Of a stretch of DNA of 64,000 nucleotides, positions 4,964-54,180 are shown in pieces (the first letter of the stretch is position 1; every line of letters begins with the position of its first letter). The notes under the pieces are model-generated. The model saw only the letters and a list, made by a program, of their open reading frames with translations. It ran no database searches and had not been told where the DNA came from. The DNA comes from Atribacterota bacterium (GTDB taxonomy: Bacteria > Atribacterota > Phoenicimicrobiia > Phoenicimicrobiales > Phoenicimicrobiaceae). The DNA is taken from NCBI GenBank assembly GCA_038203565.1, contig JBBRDV010000002.1, forward strand, positions 14,283-78,282, given 5' to 3'. The position numbers were made by a program, and so were the translations under genes.

Positions 4964-5467
4964 TTATTTATTATTTTCTTCAAGAATTTTATTTAATATC
5001 TTTTCTAAGTTTTCTTTCAACTGTCTTGCTACAATTCGATAAAATTCTATAGGTCTACCAAGAGGGTCAACTACTTCATAGTTTTCGTCAGTTTTTTGTA
5101 TACTTTTAAATTCACCAACCTGAGCAAATTTTTTAAGTAAATAAATTTTATCTTGAGCCAAGGTAAATTTTGTTTTAATATAATCTTTATGTGTATTGGA
5201 CATAACCAAAATTAGATCTGCTTTTTTAACTAAATCTTCCTGTAATTGTAAGGCTTTATGTTGGGAAATATTTATTCCTTGTTCAAACATCACTGAAATT
5301 GCTTCCGGAGTTGGACTCATTCCCGGAATAACAGAAATTCCCGCAGATAGAATATTATAATTATTTTCATTTTCTGCTTTTTCTTTTAACATACTTTCAA
5401 ATAATCCTTGTGCCATAACACTCCTGCAGGTATTTCCGGTGCAAACAAATAAGATATTTGTGATCAT
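4964..5467 (-). CDS. Low-molecular-weight protein-tyrosine phosphatase (YwlE-like)
   Basis: CTGNTCRS P-loop at the N-terminus. The position matches the B. subtilis ywlE-rpiB arrangement. Confidence 0.8.
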   Translation of the reverse strand: MITNILFVCTGNTCRSVMAQGLFESMLKEKAENENNYNILSAGISVIPGMSPTPEAISVMFEQGINISQHKALQLQEDLVKKADLILVMSNTHKDYIKTKFTLAQDKIYLLKKFAQVGEFKSIQKTDENYEVVDPLGRPIEFYRIVARQLKENLEKILNKILEENNK

Positions 5468-5510
5468 TTCAAAATTATCCTCACGATATACGCTATACTC
5501 AATACTATGG

Positions 5511-6407
5511 TCATTTTCTGTATGCTATTACTACTCGCTCTATTCCAGAATAATCTTTAAAAATTTCAACATTTTGTCTATAATTATCTTCTTTTAAAAT
5601 TAACTCTTTTATTATTTTTGCTTGGCCCATCCCAACTTCTAAAGCTATAAAACCATTCTTTTTTAAATATTGAGGACTTTTCCTTATTATTTTACGATAA
5701 TAATCTAAACCGTCAATTCCTCCAGATAAAGCAATTTTAGGTTCATTGTCTCTTACTTCGGGCGGCAATAATTTAAAATCGTAAGAATCTATATAGGGGG
5801 GATTTGAAATAATTCCATCTAAGCTATTTTTTTTTATTCTGCCTATAAATGGTTCAAATAAGTCTCCTTGTAAAAAAATAATTTTATCTTTGCACGCATG
5901 TTTTTGAGCATTTTTCAACGCTATTTGCAAAGATATTTTAGAAATATCGGTTGCGTAAATGATAATATCTTCTATAAATTTAGCTATACTTACAGCAATT
6001 ATACCTGTACCGGTTCCTAAATCTGCTACCTCTAATTTATTAGAACATTTATGGTTTTTTAATTTTTTAATAACTTCTTCTACTAAAATCTCTGTCTCTG
6101 GTCGGGGAATAAAAACCCCCTTTTCTACCGAAAAATCCATCCCCATAAATTCTTGGTATTTAGTAATATATTGGAGTGGAATTTTCTCTATTCTTTTTTG
6201 AATCTTTTTCTCTAATTGTGTTTTTTCTATATCTTTTAATACTCTATCAGAATTTAAATATATTTCGCTCCTACTCATCTCCAAAGAATAACTTAATAGA
6301 ATTTCCGCTTCTCTTTCTGAATTTATTATTCCCTTATTTTTAAATATTTCATGAATATTTTTTAAGGCCTGCCCTATGGTCTGAAATCTATATTTATTTT
6401 CCAACAT
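5511..6407 (-). CDS. prmC: Release factor glutamine N5-methyltransferase PrmC/HemK
   Basis: NPPY motif (IISNPPYI), SAM-binding DLGTGTG, directly downstream of prfA. Confidence 0.85.
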   Translation of the reverse strand: MLENKYRFQTIGQALKNIHEIFKNKGIINSEREAEILLSYSLEMSRSEIYLNSDRVLKDIEKTQLEKKIQKRIEKIPLQYITKYQEFMGMDFSVEKGVFIPRPETEILVEEVIKKLKNHKCSNKLEVADLGTGTGIIAVSIAKFIEDIIIYATDISKISLQIALKNAQKHACKDKIIFLQGDLFEPFIGRIKKNSLDGIISNPPYIDSYDFKLLPPEVRDNEPKIALSGGIDGLDYYRKIIRKSPQYLKKNGFIALEVGMGQAKIIKELILKEDNYRQNVEIFKDYSGIERVVIAYRK

Positions 6408-9081: not shown

Positions 9082-9123
9082 CTCGTATATCGTATATCGT
9101 ATTATATAGTATAGCGTATAGTC
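9082..9123. repeat. Heptad tandem repeats (TCGTATA x2.5, tatagtatagcgtatag)
   Basis: Seen directly, abutting the thyX RBS. Confidence 0.85.
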
Positions 9124-15296: not shown

Positions 15297-15326
15297 CGAT
15301 ATACGATATACGACATACGATATACT
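15297..15326. repeat. (CGATATA)-type heptad array: cgatatacgatatacgacatacgatatact
   Basis: Seen directly, between the stop of the 496-aa ORF and the MBL gene start. Confidence 0.85.
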
Positions 15327-24000: not shown

Positions 24001-24080
24001 TTACAACACCTTTCTAAAACTACACTTATAATTTAATACTTATAATCTTCTTTTTACCATTAAATAATTATACACTTATT

Positions 24081-24354
24081 ATATCGTATTGCGTATATAG
24101 TATTTAGTATATAGTTAAAAAAGAAAGAGTACCCGGATAGGAGGGGCGTATCGGGTATCGAGTATCGCGGATAAGAATAGTGATGAGTAATGCGTAATAA
24201 GTAATTTGTAGGGGCACGATACATCGTGCCCAAGGCAAACAAAAGATAATAAAACAGGAAGGCACAATTCATTGTGCCCCTACACCTGAATCATATTTTT
24301 TTCACGCGATATACGATATACGATATACGATATACTATTCACTCACGACTAATT
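24081..24354. repeat. Large intergenic repeat mosaic: heptads (24081-24117, 24146-24172, 24305-24336), REP hairpins gtaggggcacgatacatcgtgccc (24208-24231) and ggcacaattcattgtgcccctac (24261-24283), and the 17-mer ctattcactcacgactaatt (24335-24354)
   Basis: Seen directly in the 370-bp region between ade and uvrB. Confidence 0.85.
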
Positions 24355-26099: not shown

Positions 26100-26139
26100 T
26101 CGTATATCGTATATCGTATATCGTATATCGTATATCGTT
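26100..26139. repeat. (TCGTATA)x5.5 perfect heptad array abutting the ade RBS
   Basis: tcgtatatcgtatatcgtatatcgtatatcgtatatcgtt. Confidence 0.9.
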
Positions 26140-30163: not shown

Positions 30164-33100
30164 TTAACATTTTTCTTTCCATATTTTTTCATCTCCTAAA
30201 ACACCACGAATCTCTTCCATAAATTTATCACCAAGGTTAACTGAATATTTTTTATCTATGGCATGTAATATAGTTTTATCCTTACCCTTAAAATGAAGTA
30301 TTACTTGACTTTTCCCTGGATATCCGTAAAATAATTCTTTCAATTTTCTTAAAAGATCAGATTCATTTTCCCCTGTGCTAATCTCAAGGTGAAGTTCTTC
30401 AGCAAGATTCTGATTCTTTTCTTCTGTTTTAGGAGTAGGTCTTTTATTTTCTACATATTTTTCTAAAAGAGATATCTTCTCAGCAATAATTTTTGTCTTT
30501 CCTTCTGCCACATCAATATGTCCTTCTGTTATGATAATCTCATCTTTTTTTATCATTTCTTTGCATTTTTCATAAACCTTAGGAAAAGCTATTATTTCTA
30601 CAGTGCCCTCTAAATCTTCTAAGGTAATAAATGCCATAAGATTCCCATTTTTGGTACTCTTTATTTTTAAATTATTAATAACTCCAGCTAAAACTACTCT
30701 ACTTTTATCTGAAAGGTTAGTTAATTCGATTGAGGTGGAAGTTATAATTTTCTTTAATTTTTCCCTGTAATCATTCAATGGGTGATAGGAAATATATAAT
30801 CCTAACATTTCCTTTTCCATAGCTAAAAGTTCATTTTTAGAAAATTCTGAAATATCCGGTAATCTATCCTGGTAATTACCGCTATTTTTATCTGGGTTAT
30901 TTTCTTCGAAAAGATCAAAGATTGAAGTCTGTCCATTCCCCTTGGATTTTTGATATTCTTGGCCACTTTTTAAGGTTACATCTAAAACTGCCAGTAATTG
31001 GGATCTTTTCGCACCGATAGAATCGAAGGCACCACATTTGATTAAACTTTCGATTACCCTCTTATTTACTACTCTTAAATCAACTCTCTGGCAAAAATCG
31101 AGTAAAGAAGTAAAATTAGAATTTCTTTTGTGTTCATCAATAATGCTTTTTATAGCTTTCTCGCCAACATTTTTTATAGCAGCCAACCCAAAGCGAATAG
31201 CCTTTCCCCCTACTACAGTAAAATTTACTAAACTCTGGTTTATATCGGGAGGCAGTATTTCAATATTCATATTCCGGCATTCTTTTATATACAAAGCTAC
31301 TTTATCATTGTTTCCCATAATACTGGTAAGCAAAGAGGCCATATATTCTAAGGTATAATGAGTTTTTAAATAGGCAGTCTGATATGAGATAAAGGCGTAA
31401 GAAACGCTGTGAGATTTATTAAAACCATATCCGGCGAAATAAGCAATCAAATCAAATATTTCAACAGCTGTATTTTTTTTAATATTATTTTTTTGAGCTC
31501 CTTTTATAAAAAGTTCCCGTTGTTTTTCCATCACTTCTTTCTGTTTTTTTCCCATAGCTTTTCGCAGGATATCTGCTTGTCCCAAAGTAAACCCGGCCAA
31601 TTCACTGGCAATCATCATAACTTGTTCCTGATAAACGATTACTCCATAAGTTTCCTTTAATATAGACTCTAAACGAGGATGAGGATATTTTATTTCTACA
31701 ATTCCCTTCTTTCTATTAATGAAATCTTCGATCATGCCGCTCCCCAAAGGTCCTGGTCTATATAATGCCAGCAAGGCAGTAATATCTTCTAAGTTTTCCG
31801 GTTTTAATCTTTTAACTAAATCTCTCATCCCTTCACTTTCTATTTGGAAAACACCAGCACAGTTTCCTTTAGATAACATTTTGTACACTTTTTTATCATC
31901 CAAAGGTATTTTGTTTATATCAACCTGTTCTCCCCGAGTATGTTTTATTATTTTTAAAGCATCACTTATTACAGTCAGGGTGCGGAGTCCTAAAAAATCC
32001 ATCTTCAATAATCCCAGTTCTTCCAATTCAGCCATAGCATACTGAGTACATATTTCTCCTTCAGCTGTCTTTTGTAAAGGAATGTAATCAGTCAGTGGCT
32101 TTCGAGAAAGAACTATACCCGCAGCATGGGTCGAGGCATGACGAGCTAAACCTTCTAAAAAAGAAGCAGTTTCAATTAACTTTTTTATATCCTCGTCACT
32201 TTCCATTAACTCTTTAAGTCGGCTTTCCATCTTTAAAGCCTTTTCGATAGTAATATTAAGTTCCCAGGGAATCATTTTAGCGATAGTATCCACCCGAGCA
32301 TAGGGAATTCCTAATGCTCTTCCTACATCTCTAACAGCAGCTCTGGCTGCCATAGTACCAAAAGTAATAATCTGAGCTACTTTATCATTACCATATTTTT
32401 TAGAAACATACTCAATTACTTCTTCTCTTCGTTCATAACAAAAATCAATATCAAAATCTGGCATACTGATTCTTTCAGGATTTAAAAATCTTTCAAACAG
32501 CAATCCGTATGCTATAGGGTCAATATTGGTAATATTCAGACAATAAGCAACTAAACTTCCTGCTGCAGAACCTCGACCAGGTCCCACCATAATTCCCTTT
32601 TCTTTGGCATATCTTACAAAATCCCACACAATTAAAAAATAAGGTTCAAATTCCATTTTTTTTATAACTGAAAGTTCGTACTCTAATCTCTCCTCTAACG
32701 GTTTGGTAGTCTCGGGGTATCTCTCATTAAGCCCTTTATAGCATAGCTCTTTTAAATAAGTATTAATATTATATTCGGGAGGAACCTTAAATTCTGGTAA
32801 TTGAGCATGCCTAAAATCTATTTCTAAATTACATCTTTCAGCAATACGGATAGTGTTTTCGATGGCTTGAGGAACTTTTGAGAAGTTTTTATTCATTTCC
32901 TCTGGAGAATTAAAATAAAATGCATCAGTGGCAAATTTTAAACGTTTAGAGTCACTTAAATTTGTAGCTGTTTGGATACACAGTAAAATTTCGTGGGCTC
33001 GGGCATCTTCTTTATTTATATAATGAATATCATTGCTCGCAACAAGAGGAATAGAAAGTTCTTGACTTATCTGAATGAGATTTTCGTTTACAATTTCCTG

Positions 33101-33652
33101 TTCGGGAATACCGTTTTTTTGTAATTCTAAATAAAAATTATCTTTGCCAAAAATATCTAAAAAATCAAGAGCTACTTCTTTTGCTCTCTTAATATCATTC
33201 CCTAAAATACATTGAGAGATTTCTCCTTTTAAGCAGGCAGAAAGAGCAATTAATCCGCCGCTATGTTCTCTTAATACTTCTTTATCAATTCTTGGTTTAT
33301 AATAAAAACCTTCCAGATAAGATAAGGTAACTAACTTTATTAAATTCTTATAACCTTCATTGTTTTTAACCAGTAGTATTATGTGATGGGGAGTTTCTTT
33401 TCTTTGTGAGGATCTGTCAAGCCTGCTCTGCTGGGCAACATACATTTCGCAACCAATAATGGGTTTTACTCCCTGCCTGATAGCTTCTTTGTAAAACTGT
33501 ATAGCTCCATACATAACCCCATGATCAGTAATAGCCAAAGCAGGCATTTTGTGTTTTTTAGCTTGAGCGACTAATTCTGATATTCGGCAGGCTCCATCTA
33601 ACAGGCTATATTCAGTATGTACATGTAGGTGAACAAAGTTTGCGTGCCACAC
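30164..33652 (-). CDS. dnaE: DNA polymerase III alpha subunit
   Basis: PHP domain (HLHVHTEYSLLDG), polymerase core and OB fold. The ORF call to 33784 runs through heptad repeats, so the likely true start is the GTG at 33652 behind the AGGGGG RBS. Confidence 0.9.
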   Translation of the reverse strand: MWHANFVHLHVHTEYSLLDGACRISELVAQAKKHKMPALAITDHGVMYGAIQFYKEAIRQGVKPIIGCEMYVAQQSRLDRSSQRKETPHHIILLVKNNEGYKNLIKLVTLSYLEGFYYKPRIDKEVLREHSGGLIALSACLKGEISQCILGNDIKRAKEVALDFLDIFGKDNFYLELQKNGIPEQEIVNENLIQISQELSIPLVASNDIHYINKEDARAHEILLCIQTATNLSDSKRLKFATDAFYFNSPEEMNKNFSKVPQAIENTIRIAERCNLEIDFRHAQLPEFKVPPEYNINTYLKELCYKGLNERYPETTKPLEERLEYELSVIKKMEFEPYFLIVWDFVRYAKEKGIMVGPGRGSAAGSLVAYCLNITNIDPIAYGLLFERFLNPERISMPDFDIDFCYERREEVIEYVSKKYGNDKVAQIITFGTMAARAAVRDVGRALGIPYARVDTIAKMIPWELNITIEKALKMESRLKELMESDEDIKKLIETASFLEGLARHASTHAAGIVLSRKPLTDYIPLQKTAEGEICTQYAMAELEELGLLKMDFLGLRTLTVISDALKIIKHTRGEQVDINKIPLDDKKVYKMLSKGNCAGVFQIESEGMRDLVKRLKPENLEDITALLALYRPGPLGSGMIEDFINRKKGIVEIKYPHPRLESILKETYGVIVYQEQVMMIASELAGFTLGQADILRKAMGKKQKEVMEKQRELFIKGAQKNNIKKNTAVEIFDLIAYFAGYGFNKSHSVSYAFISYQTAYLKTHYTLEYMASLLTSIMGNNDKVALYIKECRNMNIEILPPDINQSLVNFTVVGGKAIRFGLAAIKNVGEKAIKSIIDEHKRNSNFTSLLDFCQRVDLRVVNKRVIESLIKCGAFDSIGAKRSQLLAVLDVTLKSGQEYQKSKGNGQTSIFDLFEENNPDKNSGNYQDRLPDISEFSKNELLAMEKEMLGLYISYHPLNDYREKLKKIITSTSIELTNLSDKSRVVLAGVINNLKIKSTKNGNLMAFITLEDLEGTVEIIAFPKVYEKCKEMIKKDEIIITEGHIDVAEGKTKIIAEKISLLEKYVENKRPTPKTEEKNQNLAEELHLEISTGENESDLLRKLKELFYGYPGKSQVILHFKGKDKTILHAIDKKYSVNLGDKFMEEIRGVLGDEKIWKEKC

Positions 33653-33678
33653 GATAAAACCCCCTAGTCTACATCTTG

Positions 33679-33716
33679 TATCGAGTAAGAACAGTATATA
33701 GTATCGAGTATATATT
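33679..33716. repeat. Heptad-type repeats gtatcgagtaagaacagtatatagtatcgagtatat
   Basis: Seen directly. A second array, tactatatactcgataatatatactcgatactga, lies at 33831-33864. Confidence 0.8.
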
Positions 33717-33870
33717 AAAAACAAAGAATACTTTATATAAATTTGGATTATAATTTTTGTATTATTTTTACTGTCATTCGACAAATATATTTTATCTTTT
33801 CAGTCATTCTTCTCTTTGCTTTTCTCTCTTTACTATATACTCGATAATATATACTCGATACTGATTCTGT

Positions 33871-34926
33871 TTATTTGAAAAATACCTGTGCCAGTTTCCA
33901 CCATTTTTTATCTACCAATTTAAGTTTGCTTACCGCTTCTTCTAAAGGTACTCCTATTACTTCACTGCCTTTAAGGGCGGCCATATAACCAAATTTTCCT
34001 TGAGCAATCAGATCTACGGCAGTAACTCCACACCTAAGACCTAAAATACGGTCGAAAAGTGTAGGAGAACCCCCTCTTTGAATATGACCTATCACTGCAT
34101 GGCGAGCTTCAATGCCGGTATTCTTTTTAATTAAATCAGCCAAAAGATTTCCCACTCCCCTATCCCGTAATATCATATGCCCAAAGTGGTCCAAGCTTTC
34201 CTTCTCGATATCTATGCCAGGAAGAGTTACTCCTTCCGATATAACCACAGAAGCATACTTGTTCTTTTTATAGACTTCTTTTAAATGCAAACACATCTTC
34301 TTTATATCTGTTTTTTCTTCAGGAATAAGGGTCCAATCTGCGCCAGAAGCCATACCGGTAAATAAAGCTACCCAACCGGCATGTCTTCCCATTACTTCTA
34401 AAACCATTATTCTGCGATGAGAGCGTCCACTATCTTGAAGGCTTCGCATCGCCTCAATTGCCCGGGTGACTGAACTATCGAAACCAAAAGTGTAATCTGT
34501 CCCGCTAAGATCATTATCCATAGTCTTAGGAGCACCAACCAACTTAACATTTTCCTCTTTAAATAATTTATTAGCTACACCTAAAGTATCTTCCCCGCCA
34601 ATAGCTATCACCGCATCTAATTTAAACTTTTTTATTGAGTCAAGAACCTGTTTAATGCCATTATCTATTTTATAAGGATTTAATCTTGAAGTCCCTAAAA
34701 CAGTACCTCCCCTATCAACTATTTCCTTTACTTCACTTAAAGATAGGGGGCTTATATTTTCCTTTATCAATCCCTTCCATCCTTCTTGAATGCCATAGAC
34801 TTCATAATTATAATCCTGAGCCCGGTATACTGCTCCCCTGATAGTCGGATTTAATCCGGAACAATCTCCTCCCCCGGTTAAAATGCCTACTCTTTTAATC
34901 ATATTTATCAAGCCTTTCCGCAACAA
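33871..34926 (-). CDS. pfkA: 6-phosphofructokinase, possibly pyrophosphate-dependent
   Basis: GGDCS and GGEDT..PKTMDND motifs. A Lys at the position of Gly124 in E. coli PfkA is characteristic of PPi-PFKs (inference). Confidence 0.85.
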   Translation of the reverse strand: MLRKGLINMIKRVGILTGGGDCSGLNPTIRGAVYRAQDYNYEVYGIQEGWKGLIKENISPLSLSEVKEIVDRGGTVLGTSRLNPYKIDNGIKQVLDSIKKFKLDAVIAIGGEDTLGVANKLFKEENVKLVGAPKTMDNDLSGTDYTFGFDSSVTRAIEAMRSLQDSGRSHRRIMVLEVMGRHAGWVALFTGMASGADWTLIPEEKTDIKKMCLHLKEVYKKNKYASVVISEGVTLPGIDIEKESLDHFGHMILRDRGVGNLLADLIKKNTGIEARHAVIGHIQRGGSPTLFDRILGLRCGVTAVDLIAQGKFGYMAALKGSEVIGVPLEEAVSKLKLVDKKWWKLAQVFFK

Positions 34927-35774
34927 CCAAAGACTCTCATTCTATCACGAATAATTTCTTTGGCTGCATCTTTTGCCGGTCCCAATATTTTGCGAGGGTC
35001 TATTTGATTTGGGTTTTCCTCAAATATCTCTTTCATCTTTTTTGTAAAAATCATTCTGATGAGAGTATCTATATTTATCTTGCATATTCCTGCGGCAATA
35101 CCTTTTCTGACCTCATCATCATTCGCCCCGGAGGCACCATGTAAAACCAAAGGAACTGCAGTTAATTCTCTTATTCTCTCGATACGAGGGATATCTAACT
35201 TTGCAAAAGGAGTACGACATCCATGAATTGTCCCCACGGCTGCAGCAAGAGAATCAATTCCGGTCAACTCTACGAATTTTGCAGCTTCCTCTGGAACAGC
35301 CATACTCTCTTTTACTTTCTCCAAAGCAACCCCGGGTTCATCACTATCTCCCATAGTACCTATCTGACCCAATTCTGCTTCTACCGGAATTTCAACGGTA
35401 TGAGCCATCTCTACTACTTTTTTAGTCATATCAACATTTTCATTAAATGGTAATTTTGAACCATCAAACATTAAAGAGGTAAATCCTGCTCTTAAACATT
35501 TTATATTTTGGTAATAATCTGTACCGTGATCTAAATGTAAAGCTATTGGTACTTTTACTTTTTCAGCCATGACTTTAACCATAGCTACAATAGTTTCTAA
35601 CCCCGCATATTTTATAGCTCCCTGAGAAGCTTGCAAAATCACCGGCGCTTTTTCTTCCTCGGCAGTTTCAATTATAGCCTGAATAATCTCCATATTATTG
35701 GCATTAAATGCACCAATACCGTATCTTCCTTTCTGAGCATCTTTTAACATTTCTTTAGTAGTTACAAAAGTCAT
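34908..35774 (-). CDS. fba: Fructose-bisphosphate aldolase, class II
   Basis: HLDHG zinc ligand motif and a class II FBA N-terminus; 288 aa. Confidence 0.9.
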   Translation of the reverse strand: MTFVTTKEMLKDAQKGRYGIGAFNANNMEIIQAIIETAEEEKAPVILQASQGAIKYAGLETIVAMVKVMAEKVKVPIALHLDHGTDYYQNIKCLRAGFTSLMFDGSKLPFNENVDMTKKVVEMAHTVEIPVEAELGQIGTMGDSDEPGVALEKVKESMAVPEEAAKFVELTGIDSLAAAVGTIHGCRTPFAKLDIPRIERIRELTAVPLVLHGASGANDDEVRKGIAAGICKINIDTLIRMIFTKKMKEIFEENPNQIDPRKILGPAKDAAKEIIRDRMRVFGCCGKA

Positions 35775-37880: not shown

Positions 37881-38036
37881 CTCGTATCCAGTATCGAATA
37901 TCCGGTATATAGTATAGAGTAAAGAGAAAAAATAAATAAAAGAATAACTAAAAACTTCTAAAATTTAAGAATCTTACAAATTTGCCTCAGTTATTCACTC
38001 GATACTTGATACTGGATACTGGATACTCGATACTGA
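37881..38036. repeat. Two heptad arrays flanking an AT-rich spacer: ctcgtatccagtatcgaatatccggtatatagtatagagt, and ttattcact-(NGATACT)x5
   Basis: cgatacttgatactggatactggatactcgatactgac is seen directly, between convergent hflC and the fusion gene. Confidence 0.85.
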
Positions 38037-38041
38037 CTATA

Positions 38042-39691
38042 TCAATATTCTAATTCAGGATCTATTCTACTTTCTGGTTCTTCCCCGTAATAAATCTTCA
38101 CTATATCATCAAAAACAGACTTTATATTTTCTTCTAATGCTCTATCAGTATAGCCTGCGGTATGAGGACTCATCACTACATTATCTAATTTATTAAAATC
38201 ATATTTACTGGGTAGTACTTCTCTCTGTTCCGAAGAAGGATATTGATACCAGGTATCTATTGCTGCTCCAGTAAGATTACCTTCTTTTAAAGATTTAAAT
38301 AAAGCTTCCTCGTCTATTACCACTCCTCGGGAAATATTTATAAGATATTTTCCCTTCATTAACTTTAGCTCTTTCTTTCCAATTAATCCCTTGGTTTCCT
38401 TAGTCAGGGGAACAGCTACCACAATAAAATTTGATTCCTTAATCACTTTTTCTAAATCTTTTTTTTCTCCTAAAAATTCCAAAATATTTTTCTTTTTTAA
38501 ATCCTTCTCCTCTATCTTCCTTTTTAAAGCAAACACTTTCATGCCTAAGGTATGACCAATTTTAGCAATCTCCCATCCAATTGAACCCAAACCTATTATT
38601 CCTAAACTTTTACCCTGAAGTTGAACCGTAGGTTCTTTGACAGTAAAGCCATGCCACCTACCCAATCTCAAATCTCTGTCGTTACGAACAATATTTTTAG
38701 CTAAAGCTAAAATAAGAGCGAAGGCATGTTCAGCAACTGCAAACTTATTGGCATGGATATTACAAATAAATATGTCTGGGTAATTTTTATATAAGCTAAA
38801 ATCTAATTTATCTACCCCTGCAAAAGGAATTTGAATTAATTTTAATTTCTTAGCCTGTTCAAGGTCTTCTTTACTGAAATTTTCTCCTATCACCGCTTCA
38901 ACATCTTTGAGGTATTTTTTAATAGTTTCTCTTTCATCCTTTTTAGGTATAATAAACTCTAAATTAAGTTTTGCTTTTTTATTTAATTCATTAAATGCCT
39001 TCTCCCATACTTGAGGTTTCACCATCTTGCTTAATATCAATATTTTCATCTTTGGCCTGCTCTTGGTCTCTCTTTTTCTTCCCGATTCTTGTAAAAAGTT
39101 CCGAACTGCCATTATATGTTTACACTCGAGTTTTAATTTTCGAGCTCTTCTTAAAAAATCTATACATTCGCACTGAGGGATATTTATATCAACCTTATAA
39201 TATTTTCCCGGCTTTGAACTACTTACTAAAAAATAATCATTTTTTTGTTCTACCTTTAAATCTTTAGCAGACTGTTCCCTCTTGCTTATTTCTTCTTCAG
39301 TCAGAGCTCTTTTAGCTAAGCCATCAGCCATGGTGTTGTCATCTCTTCTATTCCAGATGAAATATACTTTCCCTGGAATGGTTCGAATGATCTCTTCAAC
39401 CCGATTAAATAGTGGAATTATTCCCTTATTTTTAACTTTGTATTTTTTATTTAACTGCTTAACCAATAGTTGGCTATCACAATATATATCTATCCTCTCA
39501 GGGTTTATTTCTTTTACCTCTTCCAACCCTCTAATTAAGGCTTTATATTCAGCAATATTATTTGTTCCATAACCGATAGCTTCACTTATTTTTTTAAACA
39601 ATTCTCCATCTTTATAAATCACTATACCAATTGCCATATTCCCTGGGTTGGGGTAACAGGCGCCATCTACTTTTATTAATATCTTAGACAT
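38042..39691 (-). CDS. Three-domain fusion: RNase HI-like domain + SWIM zinc finger + D-isomer-specific 2-hydroxyacid dehydrogenase
   Basis: Residues 1-135 carry the RNase H DEDD residues (VDGAC, AEYKAL, CDSQ, ADGLA). Residues ~170-195 carry CEC-x14-CKH (SWIM). Residues ~210-549 carry the NAD fold GIIGLGSIGWEIA plus the catalytic NISRG, IDEEAL and SPHTAG. It is one uninterrupted 549-aa ORF. Confidence 0.6.
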   Translation of the reverse strand: MSKILIKVDGACYPNPGNMAIGIVIYKDGELFKKISEAIGYGTNNIAEYKALIRGLEEVKEINPERIDIYCDSQLLVKQLNKKYKVKNKGIIPLFNRVEEIIRTIPGKVYFIWNRRDDNTMADGLAKRALTEEEISKREQSAKDLKVEQKNDYFLVSSSKPGKYYKVDINIPQCECIDFLRRARKLKLECKHIMAVRNFLQESGRKRETKSRPKMKILILSKMVKPQVWEKAFNELNKKAKLNLEFIIPKKDERETIKKYLKDVEAVIGENFSKEDLEQAKKLKLIQIPFAGVDKLDFSLYKNYPDIFICNIHANKFAVAEHAFALILALAKNIVRNDRDLRLGRWHGFTVKEPTVQLQGKSLGIIGLGSIGWEIAKIGHTLGMKVFALKRKIEEKDLKKKNILEFLGEKKDLEKVIKESNFIVVAVPLTKETKGLIGKKELKLMKGKYLINISRGVVIDEEALFKSLKEGNLTGAAIDTWYQYPSSEQREVLPSKYDFNKLDNVVMSPHTAGYTDRALEENIKSVFDDIVKIYYGEEPESRIDPELEY

Positions 39692-39910
39692 AATTAGCCA
39701 CTTCCTTAGATTTAAAAATTGTCTTTACCAACTTGCCTCCGCCCATAACTCCAATAATAATCTTTCTGATAATAATCCCCTTCTCTCTCTTTAAATTTAA
39801 TATAATTATTATAAGTTACAAAAAATGTGGCATAACTCCTCTTTTTGTAGTAAAATATTAATGTCAATATTATATATTAAAATATTTTTTTTGTCATGTT
39901 GATTAATTAC

Positions 39911-39940
39911 AGTATCAAGTATATAGTATCGAGTATCGAG
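39911..39940. repeat. Heptad-type repeats agtatcaagtatatagtatcgagtatcgag in the divergent promoter region
   Basis: Seen directly. Confidence 0.8.
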
Positions 39941-40035: not shown

Positions 40036-40770
40036 ATGAATATAGATGAAAAAATAAGGTATGCTTTTGAACATACTGAAATATTAAGAAGACCTAAACA
40101 ACTAATATCTACTTTTGGTTCCTCGGTAATTCATTATTATGTTCTAACTGAACCGGTATATTCTGAATTTACCAAAGATAATTTAGAAACTGTAGTTAGG
40201 GAGGGAAAAGTTAGCTGGTATCAACCTAAATTACTTACTCCTTCTTATATGTTTAGAATAGAAGGGTTTAGCGGAGAAGCTAAAAAGGCTTTTGAAATAC
40301 TGGCCAGCCAATATCCTGATTTAGCAGGAATTCTTTATAAATTTAAGGTTAACAAAGAACTTGATGAAATGAATTTCGTTTCCGGTCCTTTGTTAACCGT
40401 AGCAGAAAATATTAACCATGAGATTGATAAAAAGGGAGATACCCTTTGTGCCGTTATTAAGGGTATAGCTGGTCTATGGGACGTATCTCTTTCGAAGTTT
40501 ATTTTAGATATGATGGTTAGAAGTGTTTATACAGCTCAGGTACCTGATTTTAGAAAAAGAGGGTTTATAGGCGTAAACCAGATTGGTCAAGCTATTATCT
40601 CTAAAGATAGATATGGTGTCCCGCTAGCTGCCCGAGAAGAAATAGAAATATTATTTAAATTAGTAGAAAAAGGAGAATTGGAGCCGGTTGAATTAAAAGA
40701 AGAACTGGATAATTGGGGATTATTCGAACATTATCAGGATAAATTTTTTAATCTCTTTAAAAAGAGGTAA
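40036..40770 (+). CDS. Hypothetical protein (244 aa), no recognisable domain
   Basis: Good RBS (TAGGAG) and clean ORF. No motif recognised. Confidence 0.5.
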   Translation: MNIDEKIRYAFEHTEILRRPKQLISTFGSSVIHYYVLTEPVYSEFTKDNLETVVREGKVSWYQPKLLTPSYMFRIEGFSGEAKKAFEILASQYPDLAGILYKFKVNKELDEMNFVSGPLLTVAENINHEIDKKGDTLCAVIKGIAGLWDVSLSKFILDMMVRSVYTAQVPDFRKRGFIGVNQIGQAIISKDRYGVPLAAREEIEILFKLVEKGELEPVELKEELDNWGLFEHYQDKFFNLFKKR

Positions 40771-44136: not shown

Positions 44137-46182
<2,046 letters not shown>

Positions 46183-54119: not shown

Positions 54120-54180
54120 ATTCGTATCTCGTGAATCGTATCTCGTGAATCGTATCTCGTTTTTTAGCGTATAACGTATA
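54120..54180. repeat. (TCGTATCTCGTGAA)x2.8 14-nt (2x7) tandem array plus agcgtataacgtatag
   Basis: ttcgtatctcgtgaatcgtatctcgtgaatcgtatctcgt. It is the same unit as at 1951-1980. Confidence 0.9.

Follow-up and report, generated by a model that had tools for sequence, protein, structure and literature searches.

A single gene joining an RNase HI, a SWIM-type zinc finger and a D-2-hydroxyacid dehydrogenase in the Atribacterota class Phoenicimicrobiia (JS1)

In a stretch of 64,000 nucleotides from an Atribacterota genome (assembly GCA_038203565.1, contig JBBRDV010000002.1, positions 14,283 to 78,282; the whole stretch is called the window below), one gene on the minus strand encodes a type-1 RNase H domain, a SWIM-type zinc finger and a D-2-hydroxyacid dehydrogenase (2HADH) in the same reading frame. 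Here we report that this fusion is a genuine single gene, and that ancestrally it follows a SLOG-family gene as second cistron in the same operon. Its architecture is built from well-known kinds of domain, is itself undescribed, and is restricted to one class, whose members are uncultured bacteria of the subsurface. Concerning the function, we favour a bifunctional dimer whose two activities are largely independent, on the model of mycobacterial RnhC, and give this reading an even chance. The gene and its parts are located as follows (aa, amino acids).

38042..39691, minus strand: complete RNase HI-SWIM-2HADH gene, ATG start, 549 aa, stop codon at 38042-38044
39287..39691, minus strand: type-1 RNase H domain, aa 1-135, catalytic D9, E48, D72 and D123, without the basic protrusion
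39056..39286, minus strand: connector helix and SWIM-type zinc finger, aa 136-212
39092-39256, minus strand: core of the SWIM finger, about aa 146-200, ligands C174, C176, C190 and H192
38045..39055, minus strand: D-2-hydroxyacid dehydrogenase module, aa 213-549, assigned by Pfam and by relatives in the PDB; key residues G367-x-G-x-x-G372, R455, D479, Y484 (at the canonical Glu position) and H510
38156-38722, minus strand: NAD(P)-binding domain (2-Hacid_dh_C), aa 324-512

Evidence for a genuine fusion gene

The frame runs without interruption through the three parts, as a sequence-only reading of this DNA had described, and the Shine-Dalgarno-like sequence AAGGAAGTGG lies 5' of the ATG. Four domains of the protein (RVT_3, RNase_H, 2-Hacid_dh and 2-Hacid_dh_C) exceeded the curated Pfam-A cut-offs. 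It means that the Pfam assignments of the earlier reading stood for the RNase H and dehydrogenase parts, while SWIM stayed below its cut-off. NCBIfam models matched the two large domains as well, all of them short of their equivalog cut-offs. The motifs quoted there were located at aa 8-12 (VDGAC), 47-52 (AEYKAL), 71-74 (CDSQ) and 122-126 (ADGLA) in the N-terminal domain, and at aa 174-176 (CEC), 190-192 (CKH), 367-372 (GLGSIG), 453-456 (ISRG) and 508-513 (SPHTAG) in the rest of the protein.

The same architecture was readily found in other genomes. Among 5.8 billion clustered proteins, at least 120 listed clusters showed 85-100% identity with the query, each 544-558 aa long and with identical Pfam architecture, and they came from NCBI, JGI, ENA and Logan assemblies. 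When one genome of each GTDB species was scanned, the uninterrupted full-length open reading frame was present in about 30 metagenome-assembled genomes (MAGs) of Atribacterota, with identity down to about 50%. In codon-level comparison of ten pairs, the ratio of nonsynonymous to synonymous substitution rates (dN/dS) was 0.08-0.15 for the whole fusion gene, and 0.02-0.13, 0.04-0.25 and 0.03-0.25 for the RNase H domain, the SWIM core and the dehydrogenase parts, respectively. The low values in each module mean that all three modules are kept by selection.

A long frame of this kind might come from an assembly chimera, or from a frameshift which merged two or three neighbouring genes, and one metagenome contig, in which an in-frame TAG separates the RNase H part from the SWIM part, could be taken in this sense. 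However, four independent data sources yield more than 100 clusters with the intact frame, the roughly 30 species genomes carry it too, an unfused arrangement was not found in searches of representatives and with aa 1-213, and dN/dS is evenly low over the module junctions. Because independent assemblies carry the identical uninterrupted frame, the chimeric join or merged frame against which the earlier reading had warned is excluded, and we leave this explanation next to no probability.

In the metagenome contig mentioned above (L076, 1110-2291, from JGI), a single in-frame TAG follows the RNase H domain of the fusion gene. The gene is therefore called as a "standalone" RNase H of 129 aa plus a downstream gene, and it is either a pseudogene or affected by a sequencing error.

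RNase H domain

By its sequence, the N-terminal domain is an RNase HI of the Sto/LC11/Rv2228c type with intact DEDD residues and without the basic protrusion. RVT_3 matched residues 8-129 (E 3.3e-15, 56.5 bits against a cut-off of 21.6) and RNase_H matched residues 4-130 (E 5.3e-12, 46.6 bits against a cut-off of 25.8). The closest PDB sequences over aa 1-131 were LC11-RNase H1 (3u3g, 2e-17) and the N-domain of Rv2228c (3hst, 1e-16), and Sulfolobus tokodaii RNase HI (2ehg/3aly) matched the same residues at 2e-15, while the E. coli- and Thermus-type RNases HI (1ril, 2e4l) gave a weak match to aa 3-80 only, with E 1e-4 to 1e-3. In alignments with 3u3g and 3hst, D9, E48, D72 and D123 fall on the catalytic residues, and none of the four varies among 23 aligned family members. 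So both the retention of the four carboxylates and the subtype without basic protrusion were correctly recognised in the sequence-only reading. The domain was modelled by AlphaFold2 (AF2) with a predicted local distance difference test (pLDDT) score of 92-98. We expect that it would cleave the RNA strand of RNA:DNA hybrids, such as R-loops and primers.

Instead, the domain might be a nuclease for double-stranded RNA, or a mere nucleic-acid-binding module which targets the dehydrogenase. RVT_3 outscores RNase_H in Pfam, and the Sulfolobus tokodaii relative cleaves double-stranded RNA too. But the four carboxylates are invariant and the domain is under the strongest purifying selection among the three modules. 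Its nearest solved relatives were deposited as ribonuclease H or RNase HI, and RNase H activity has been demonstrated for LC11-RNase H1, Sto-RNase HI and the N-domain of Rv2228c. We consider this alternative very improbable.

SWIM-type zinc finger

When the full protein was scanned, SWIM matched residues 165-196 with E 0.083 and 12.9 bits, under the cut-off of 19.6, and the excised module of the query reached 16.9 bits. With the 80-residue module scanned alone, SWIM was the top Pfam family in 17 out of 17 diverse members, with a best E of 6e-05. The ligand pattern C174-x-C176-x13-C190-x-H192 is invariant in all 22 members retaining the module, and so is the start of the following helix, K-H-I-x-A. 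The CEC...CKH motif noticed earlier is thus present and invariant, but its spacing is x13 and not x14.

In the AF2 model the module has three short strands (146-149, 154-157 and 164-168) followed by helices. Its pLDDT was about 80-89 in the full-length model and 71.7 when excised, and a Foldseek search with the SWIM model was uninformative. We accept the module as a SWIM-type finger on its conserved ligands and profile matches, with weak structural support. The module is basic: near-clade members carry a net charge of +8 to +17 over 79 residues, and those of the distant clade carry +1 to +9. It probably supplies a nucleic-acid- or partner-binding surface that the catalytic domain is without, a role which may be likened to that of the hybrid-binding domains attached to other RNases H1.

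Dehydrogenase module

The C-terminal module is predicted to be a complete 2HADH fold. The Pfam family 2-Hacid_dh_C matched residues 324-512 above its threshold (E 1.9e-45, 154.9 bits), and 2-Hacid_dh, which is split around the NAD-binding domain and spans aa 243-543, also exceeded its threshold (E 1.8e-13, 50.7 bits). The nearest solved 2HADHs are the 3-phosphoglycerate dehydrogenase of P. horikoshii (1wwk) and the glyoxylate reductases of Pyrococcus (5aov/2dbq), with 31-34% identity. G367-L-G-S-I-G372, Arg455, the pyridine-binding Asp479, His510 and the Gly of the substrate loop are conserved. The NCBIfam equivalog cut-offs were not reached for glyoxylate reductase (NF009714, 175 against 455 bits) or for 3-phosphoglycerate dehydrogenase (TIGR01327, 156 against 454 bits), and because both were missed, the protein should not be named after either enzyme.

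The sequence-only reading had placed the catalytic Arg, Glu and His in NISRG, IDEEAL and SPHTAG. Arg455 and His510 fit this, but the Glu is not in IDEEAL, and its position is occupied by Tyr484. In the Pyrococcus glyoxylate reductases the catalytic Glu comes five residues after the pyridine-binding Asp and directly before a conserved Pro, and in the HMMER alignment their D-V-F-E-E-E-P lies opposite D479-T-W-Y-Q-Y484-P485. Among representative matches of the HMMER search, the column at the Glu position contained Tyr 128 times, Glu 11 times and His 10 times, within the motif D-[TV]-W-[YFW]-x-Y-P. Tyr484 is invariant in the fusion family, where the motif reads D-T-W-Y-x-Y-P, and the motif is common to the closest standalone proteins (P0123-P0127, 39-46% identity). 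Glu491, which a pairwise alignment with 1wwk offered as the catalytic Glu, was rejected since this position varies among E, K, I, V, D and R in the family.

So we read the predicted active site as an Arg-Tyr-His variant of the Arg-Glu(Gln)-His triad, and the family membership stands. As exceptions to the triad, the classification of 2HADHs lists formate dehydrogenases, which have Gln instead, and SERA type IIIK and some members of subfamily X4, which have lost the Glu; Tyr at the catalytic Glu position is not listed there (PMC6303947).

The end of strand beta-B, where an Asp is the criterion for NAD specificity (PMC6303947, section 8), reads FALKRK (F-A-L-K390-R391-K), and its columns are rich in Lys and Arg with no Asp. 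Because the NAD-specifying Asp is absent from the cofactor pocket, NADP(H) is more likely than strict NAD specificity, and the dehydrogenase is more likely NADP(H)-preferring. This makes the earlier description as "NAD-dependent" doubtful.

The Tyr-variant subfamily (motif at aa 479-485, 38237-38257 in the window; standalone examples P0123-P0127) seems broad and apparently uncharacterised, with a K/R-rich cofactor loop. Its standalone members occur in MAGs labelled Thermotogae/Mesoaciditoga, Armatimonadota, Spirochaetes and other phyla. The standalone relatives adjoin genes for amidohydrolases, major facilitator superfamily transporters, aminotransferases and ATP-grasp proteins; these heterogeneous contexts give no substrate clue. 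Since they are ordinary and varied metabolic operons, they suggest that the dehydrogenase module is a working enzyme.

Arrangement of the modules

The full-length AF2 model had a mean pLDDT of 91.2 and a predicted template modelling score (pTM) of 0.68. In this model the last RNase H helix extends as one continuous helix (aa 120-142) into the SWIM module, and the C-terminal helix of SWIM (aa 191-211) runs directly into the first strand of the dehydrogenase. With continuous helices at both junctions, the modules are predicted to be linked by helices and not by long disordered linkers. The structure prediction which had been suggested for the inter-domain arrangement thus yielded helical connectors, with the pTM above for the global geometry.

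Distribution

The named genera with the fusion are Candidatus Sediminicultor, Phoenicimicrobium and Oleihabitans, of the class Candidatus Phoenicimicrobiia (JS1). Beyond Atribacterota, the relatives in the species-genome scan matched only the dehydrogenase part, and they were standalone genes of about 330-345 aa with at most 39% identity. In the HMMER search against 1.84 billion representatives clustered at 50% identity, the best 150 of 51,228 matches contained one full-length cluster and one N-terminal fragment. The remaining representatives were single-stretch matches to the dehydrogenase region, that is, standalone 2HADHs of about 330 aa. The RNase H-SWIM-2HADH architecture was not found outside Atribacterota among these best 150 matches; within them, it is restricted to the class Phoenicimicrobiia/JS1.

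A search for an unfused precursor with aa 1-213 returned just fragments of the same family and standalone RNases HI of 127-188 aa without SWIM. P0290, at first a candidate for a standalone RNase H, was rejected because it is the fusion gene with an in-frame TAG, and P0292 is sited among small phage-like genes. In two related standalone RNases HI, P0297 and P0299, about 40 Cys-rich aa with a zinc-ribbon-like pattern (CSC...CQEC/CQKC) are inserted into the RNase H fold, which is a second way to add a zinc module in the RNase H clade of the fusion. No literature on the fusion was found, in line with the earlier reading, to which no characterised RNase H-SWIM-2HADH combination was known.

Upstream SLOG gene

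In 26 of about 30 related loci, including both deep clades, the fusion is directly preceded on the same strand by a SLOG gene of about 160 aa. Its stop overlaps the fusion ATG by 8 nucleotides (nt) in the near clade, and a gap of 10-40 nt separates the two in the distant clade. We therefore take a SLOG-[RNase H-SWIM-2HADH] operon, with the fusion as second cistron, to be the ancestral unit. The intact gene matches SLOG cluster4 (PF18306) at 1.7e-46, reaches the family cut-off of TIGR00725 with 107-115 bits, and retains the LOG-like motif PGxxGTxxE. SLOG proteins bind or process nucleotides (PMC6459960).

The intact SLOG gene is absent from its place directly upstream of the fusion in the window and in three related loci (L003, L016 and L009). 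What is left in the window, together with a promoter match upstream of it, is listed here.

39684..39800, minus strand: in-frame deletion remnant of the SLOG cluster4/TIGR00725 gene, a mini-frame ending in YV and a stop, with 8-nt overlap with the fusion ATG
39869..39897, minus strand: best sigma-70-like promoter match ATGACA-17-TATAAT, 11 of 12 positions, found by consensus scan upstream of the SLOG remnant and the fusion

The translation of the remnant reads ...RKIIIGVMGGG and continues, over the deletion point, with KLVKTIFKSKEVANYV before the stop. DNA alignment showed that the deletion is in frame and comprises about 440 bp, or about 147 codons. Compared with the intact gene in L001 (5514-6008) and L002 (5451-6008, a reading frame of 186 codons), the remnant still has the N-terminus, the promoter region in front of it and the stop that overlaps the fusion. 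In L009 a toxin-antitoxin-like pair (DUF6364 and ParE-like, 5353-5933) fills the space upstream of the fusion. The site at 39869..39897 is no more than a match to the pattern, and the number of sigma-70-like sites in the region was not above the shuffled expectation. A further toxin-antitoxin-like pair, HicA and HicB, is situated in the divergent intergenic region of another locus (L027, 4569-5191).

The fusion and the SLOG/TIGR00725 protein might work in one nucleotide-centred pathway. In a salvage version, the nuclease would free ribonucleotides, the LOG-like enzyme would cleave or bind them, and the dehydrogenase would process a downstream product; in another version, an NAD-derived nucleotide would be handled. 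The position of SLOG in both deep clades with the 8-nt overlap in the near clade, its match to a family cut-off with the LOG-like motif kept, and the nucleotide binding known for SLOG proteins all agree with such a pathway, and no SLOG gene was found in the neighbourhoods of the standalone 2HADH relatives outside Atribacterota. On the other hand, the fusion stays intact and constrained in the four loci without an intact SLOG gene, and it means that the partnership is dispensable. No known chemistry joins the products of RNase H to a 2-hydroxyacid dehydrogenase, and the TIGR00725 family is without assigned function. We regard a shared pathway as rather doubtful.

Possible function of the fusion protein

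In the reading that we favour, the dehydrogenase would be an active NADP(H)-preferring 2-oxoacid reductase of the Tyr-variant subfamily. It would homodimerise as 2HADHs do, and each holoenzyme would then consist of one dehydrogenase core with two RNase H-SWIM heads. By analogy with RnhC/Rv2228c, the two chemistries would most likely proceed without mechanistic coupling, and the fusion would give co-expression, dimerisation and tethering. The ancestral operon with the nucleotide-binding SLOG/TIGR00725 protein would place the fusion in nucleotide and nucleic-acid housekeeping. In MSMEG_4305/Rv2228c, the one analogue that has been studied, the RNase H and CobC domains are functionally dissociable in vivo; removal of CobC barely changed growth or the level of hybrids, and the authors attributed the fusion to drift (PMC7466739).

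Several points weigh against this reading. No fission was seen over a divergence down to about 50% identity, and the connectors appear rigid, which hints at more than accidental co-expression. The replacement of Glu by Tyr could mean that the dehydrogenase chemistry is altered or lost. In one Caldatribacteriota MAG (L019, 4115-5614) an in-frame deletion has cleanly removed the whole SWIM module and leaves a protein of 499 aa with the other parts intact, so the finger is separable and not indispensable. Finally, with a pTM of only 0.68, the inter-domain geometry is not fixed by the model.

Alternatively, the dehydrogenase might be mainly a CtBP-like NAD(P)(H)-sensing domain for dimerisation and regulation, which would switch the RNase H-SWIM heads by the redox or metabolic state. 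CtBP proteins are NADH-responsive transcriptional corepressors. Under such control, the removal of R-loops and primers would track the energy status in very slow-growing subsurface cells. The fusion is kept without fission throughout the class, its connectors are modelled as rigid helices and not as floppy linkers, and the canonical Glu which tunes the catalytic His is replaced by Tyr, all in agreement with a sensor. CTBP is also a recognised subfamily of 2HADHs, whose dimerisation is driven, via Trp318, by the binding of NAD(H) (PMC6303947), and the PDB entry 9a5q, an integrative model of the B. subtilis 2HADH TkrA bound to RecF, can be counted on the same side. But standalone relatives in metabolic operons have the same active site, Tyr484 included, which argues for a working enzyme, and Arg455, His510 and the Gly of the substrate loop are conserved. 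We think a sensor unlikely, though not negligible.

The entry 9a5q ranked sixth among the structural matches. RecF is a recombination and replication protein, and the model may independently hint at contacts of 2HADHs with DNA metabolism.

A stronger form, in which the fusion ties the removal of hybrids to the NAD(P)H or 2-oxoacid status and the Tyr-variant core gates the two RNase H-SWIM heads, possibly together with SLOG, is in our view a fairly distant prospect.

Genomic neighbourhood

The fusion gene is flanked by dnaE and the glycolytic genes pfk and fba on one side, and by ligA and the gatCAB genes on the other side. The features around it are as follows.

30164-33784, minus strand: dnaE
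33871-35774: pfk and class-II fba
between fba and the fusion gene, plus strand: hflK/hflC
37884-37926 and, inverted, 37997-38035: heptamer arrays downstream of the fusion, between hflC and the fusion, similar to the repeat at 39911..39940
39911..39940, plus strand: heptamer tandem repeat AGTATCG, 4.3 copies, detected by Tandem Repeats Finder in the divergent intergenic region
40036..40770, plus strand: conserved hypothetical gene of 244 aa, divergent to the fusion unit
between the 244-aa gene and ligA: gatB/gatA/gatC
44137-46173: ligA, NAD-dependent DNA ligase

The dnaE-pfk-fba arrangement is conserved across the class, and the locus is syntenic with housekeeping genes. No PADLOC match was obtained for the fusion protein or for its divergent neighbour, so a role in anti-phage defence was rejected. 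No structured RNA was found in the flanks of the gene; a lone SCARNA7 match was spurious and far under the threshold.

The divergent gene had been called an ORFan. It is divergent indeed, but not an ORFan: it has 213 homologous clusters with 55-98% identity, and all the named ones belong to Atribacterota/Caldatribacteriota. It had no match in Pfam, NCBIfam or PADLOC. In every locus with upstream coverage it is divergent to the SLOG/fusion unit, even where the adjacency to gatB or hflKC is lost. Because synteny of the whole region is high, the divergent pairing is weak evidence for a functional link.

The intergenic region between the two genes had also been described as a repeat-filled promoter. 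However, the heptamer arrays are a genome-wide intergenic feature: GTATCNAGTATC has 19 matches in the window against 0.78 expected, and several related loci have it as well, L021 most frequently. Tandem arrays built from units of 7 nt (GTATCGA, GTATATA, TCGTATA and CGATATA; 3-5.6 copies) are scattered through the intergenic DNA of the 64 kb, and further heptamer arrays lie at 1164-1199, 9083-9119, 15297-15325, 24080-24167, 26100-26138 and 54122-54160. Since the arrays occur in intergenic DNA throughout the window, the repeats are not specific to the fusion gene.

Comparison with known systems

A correct description of the family would be useful for annotation, because its members are labelled at present as "reverse transcriptase-like protein", "NAD(P)-dependent oxidoreductase" or "formate dehydrogenase". 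Beyond this, the family exposes a first SWIM-RNase H combination, a putative Arg-Tyr-His subfamily of 2HADHs and a conserved link to TIGR00725 SLOG proteins. If the modules were coupled, the protein would be a rare case of metabolic control built into a nuclease for nucleic-acid repair or replication, in a phylum known almost only from metagenomes. If the gating form of the sensor explanation were true, it would be a direct physical link from central metabolism to replication or R-loop maintenance in energy-starved subsurface bacteria.

With CtBP, the fusion shares the 2HADH fold, and the likeness, oligomerisation under cofactor control, is conceptual only. In CtBP, NAD+ binding drives dimerisation and then tetramerisation (PMC6303947). 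CtBP has no specific sequence relationship to the fusion and no nuclease domain.

The GHRB/SERA-like 2HADHs (5aov, 2dbq and 1wwk) are closer to the dehydrogenase module. They have the same two-domain fold, with TM-scores of 0.75-0.85 normalised to the target, and share GxGxxG, the catalytic Arg and His, and the Asp which binds the pyridine of NAD. They differ by the low identity of 31-34%, and by the replacement of Glu by Tyr in the D-[TV]-W-Y-x-Y-P of the fusion, followed by a longer loop. This Tyr motif appears to define an uncharacterised 2HADH subfamily, whose standalone members show 37-46% identity.

For the finger, the known kind for comparison is the SWIM zinc-finger domain (Pfam PF04434), as for example in ZSWIM8 and Shu2/SWS1. 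For the nuclease, Sto-RNase HI (2ehg/3aly) and LC11-RNase H1 (3u3g) have the same DEDD catalytic domain without basic protrusion, and NCBIfam RNAseHI_Thmprot matched aa 4-133 with 93.5 bits, under the equivalog cut-off of 140. These enzymes are single-domain proteins of about 140-150 aa, whereas the fusion has about 415 further residues.

The closest precedent for the whole protein is the mycobacterial/actinomycete RNase HI-acid phosphatase, a bifunctional enzyme known as Rv2228c and MSMEG_4305/RnhC (PRK07238), as the sequence-only reading had proposed. In this enzyme and in the fusion, a type-1 RNase H of the same protrusion-less subtype (3hst, E 1e-16) stands at the N-terminus and is joined to a C-terminal metabolic enzyme, and both fusions are lineage-restricted. 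The model PRK07238 (NF005567) matched aa 2-146 only, with 101 bits against a cut-off of 326, and the cut-off was not reached. The C-terminal partner is a CobC/histidine-phosphatase there and a 2HADH here, a SWIM finger stands between the domains here, and the phylum is another one. If the modules are independent, the Atribacterota gene would add to actinomycete RnhC a second and unrelated fusion of an essential-type RNase HI with a metabolic enzyme, and it would inform us how such fusions arise and persist.

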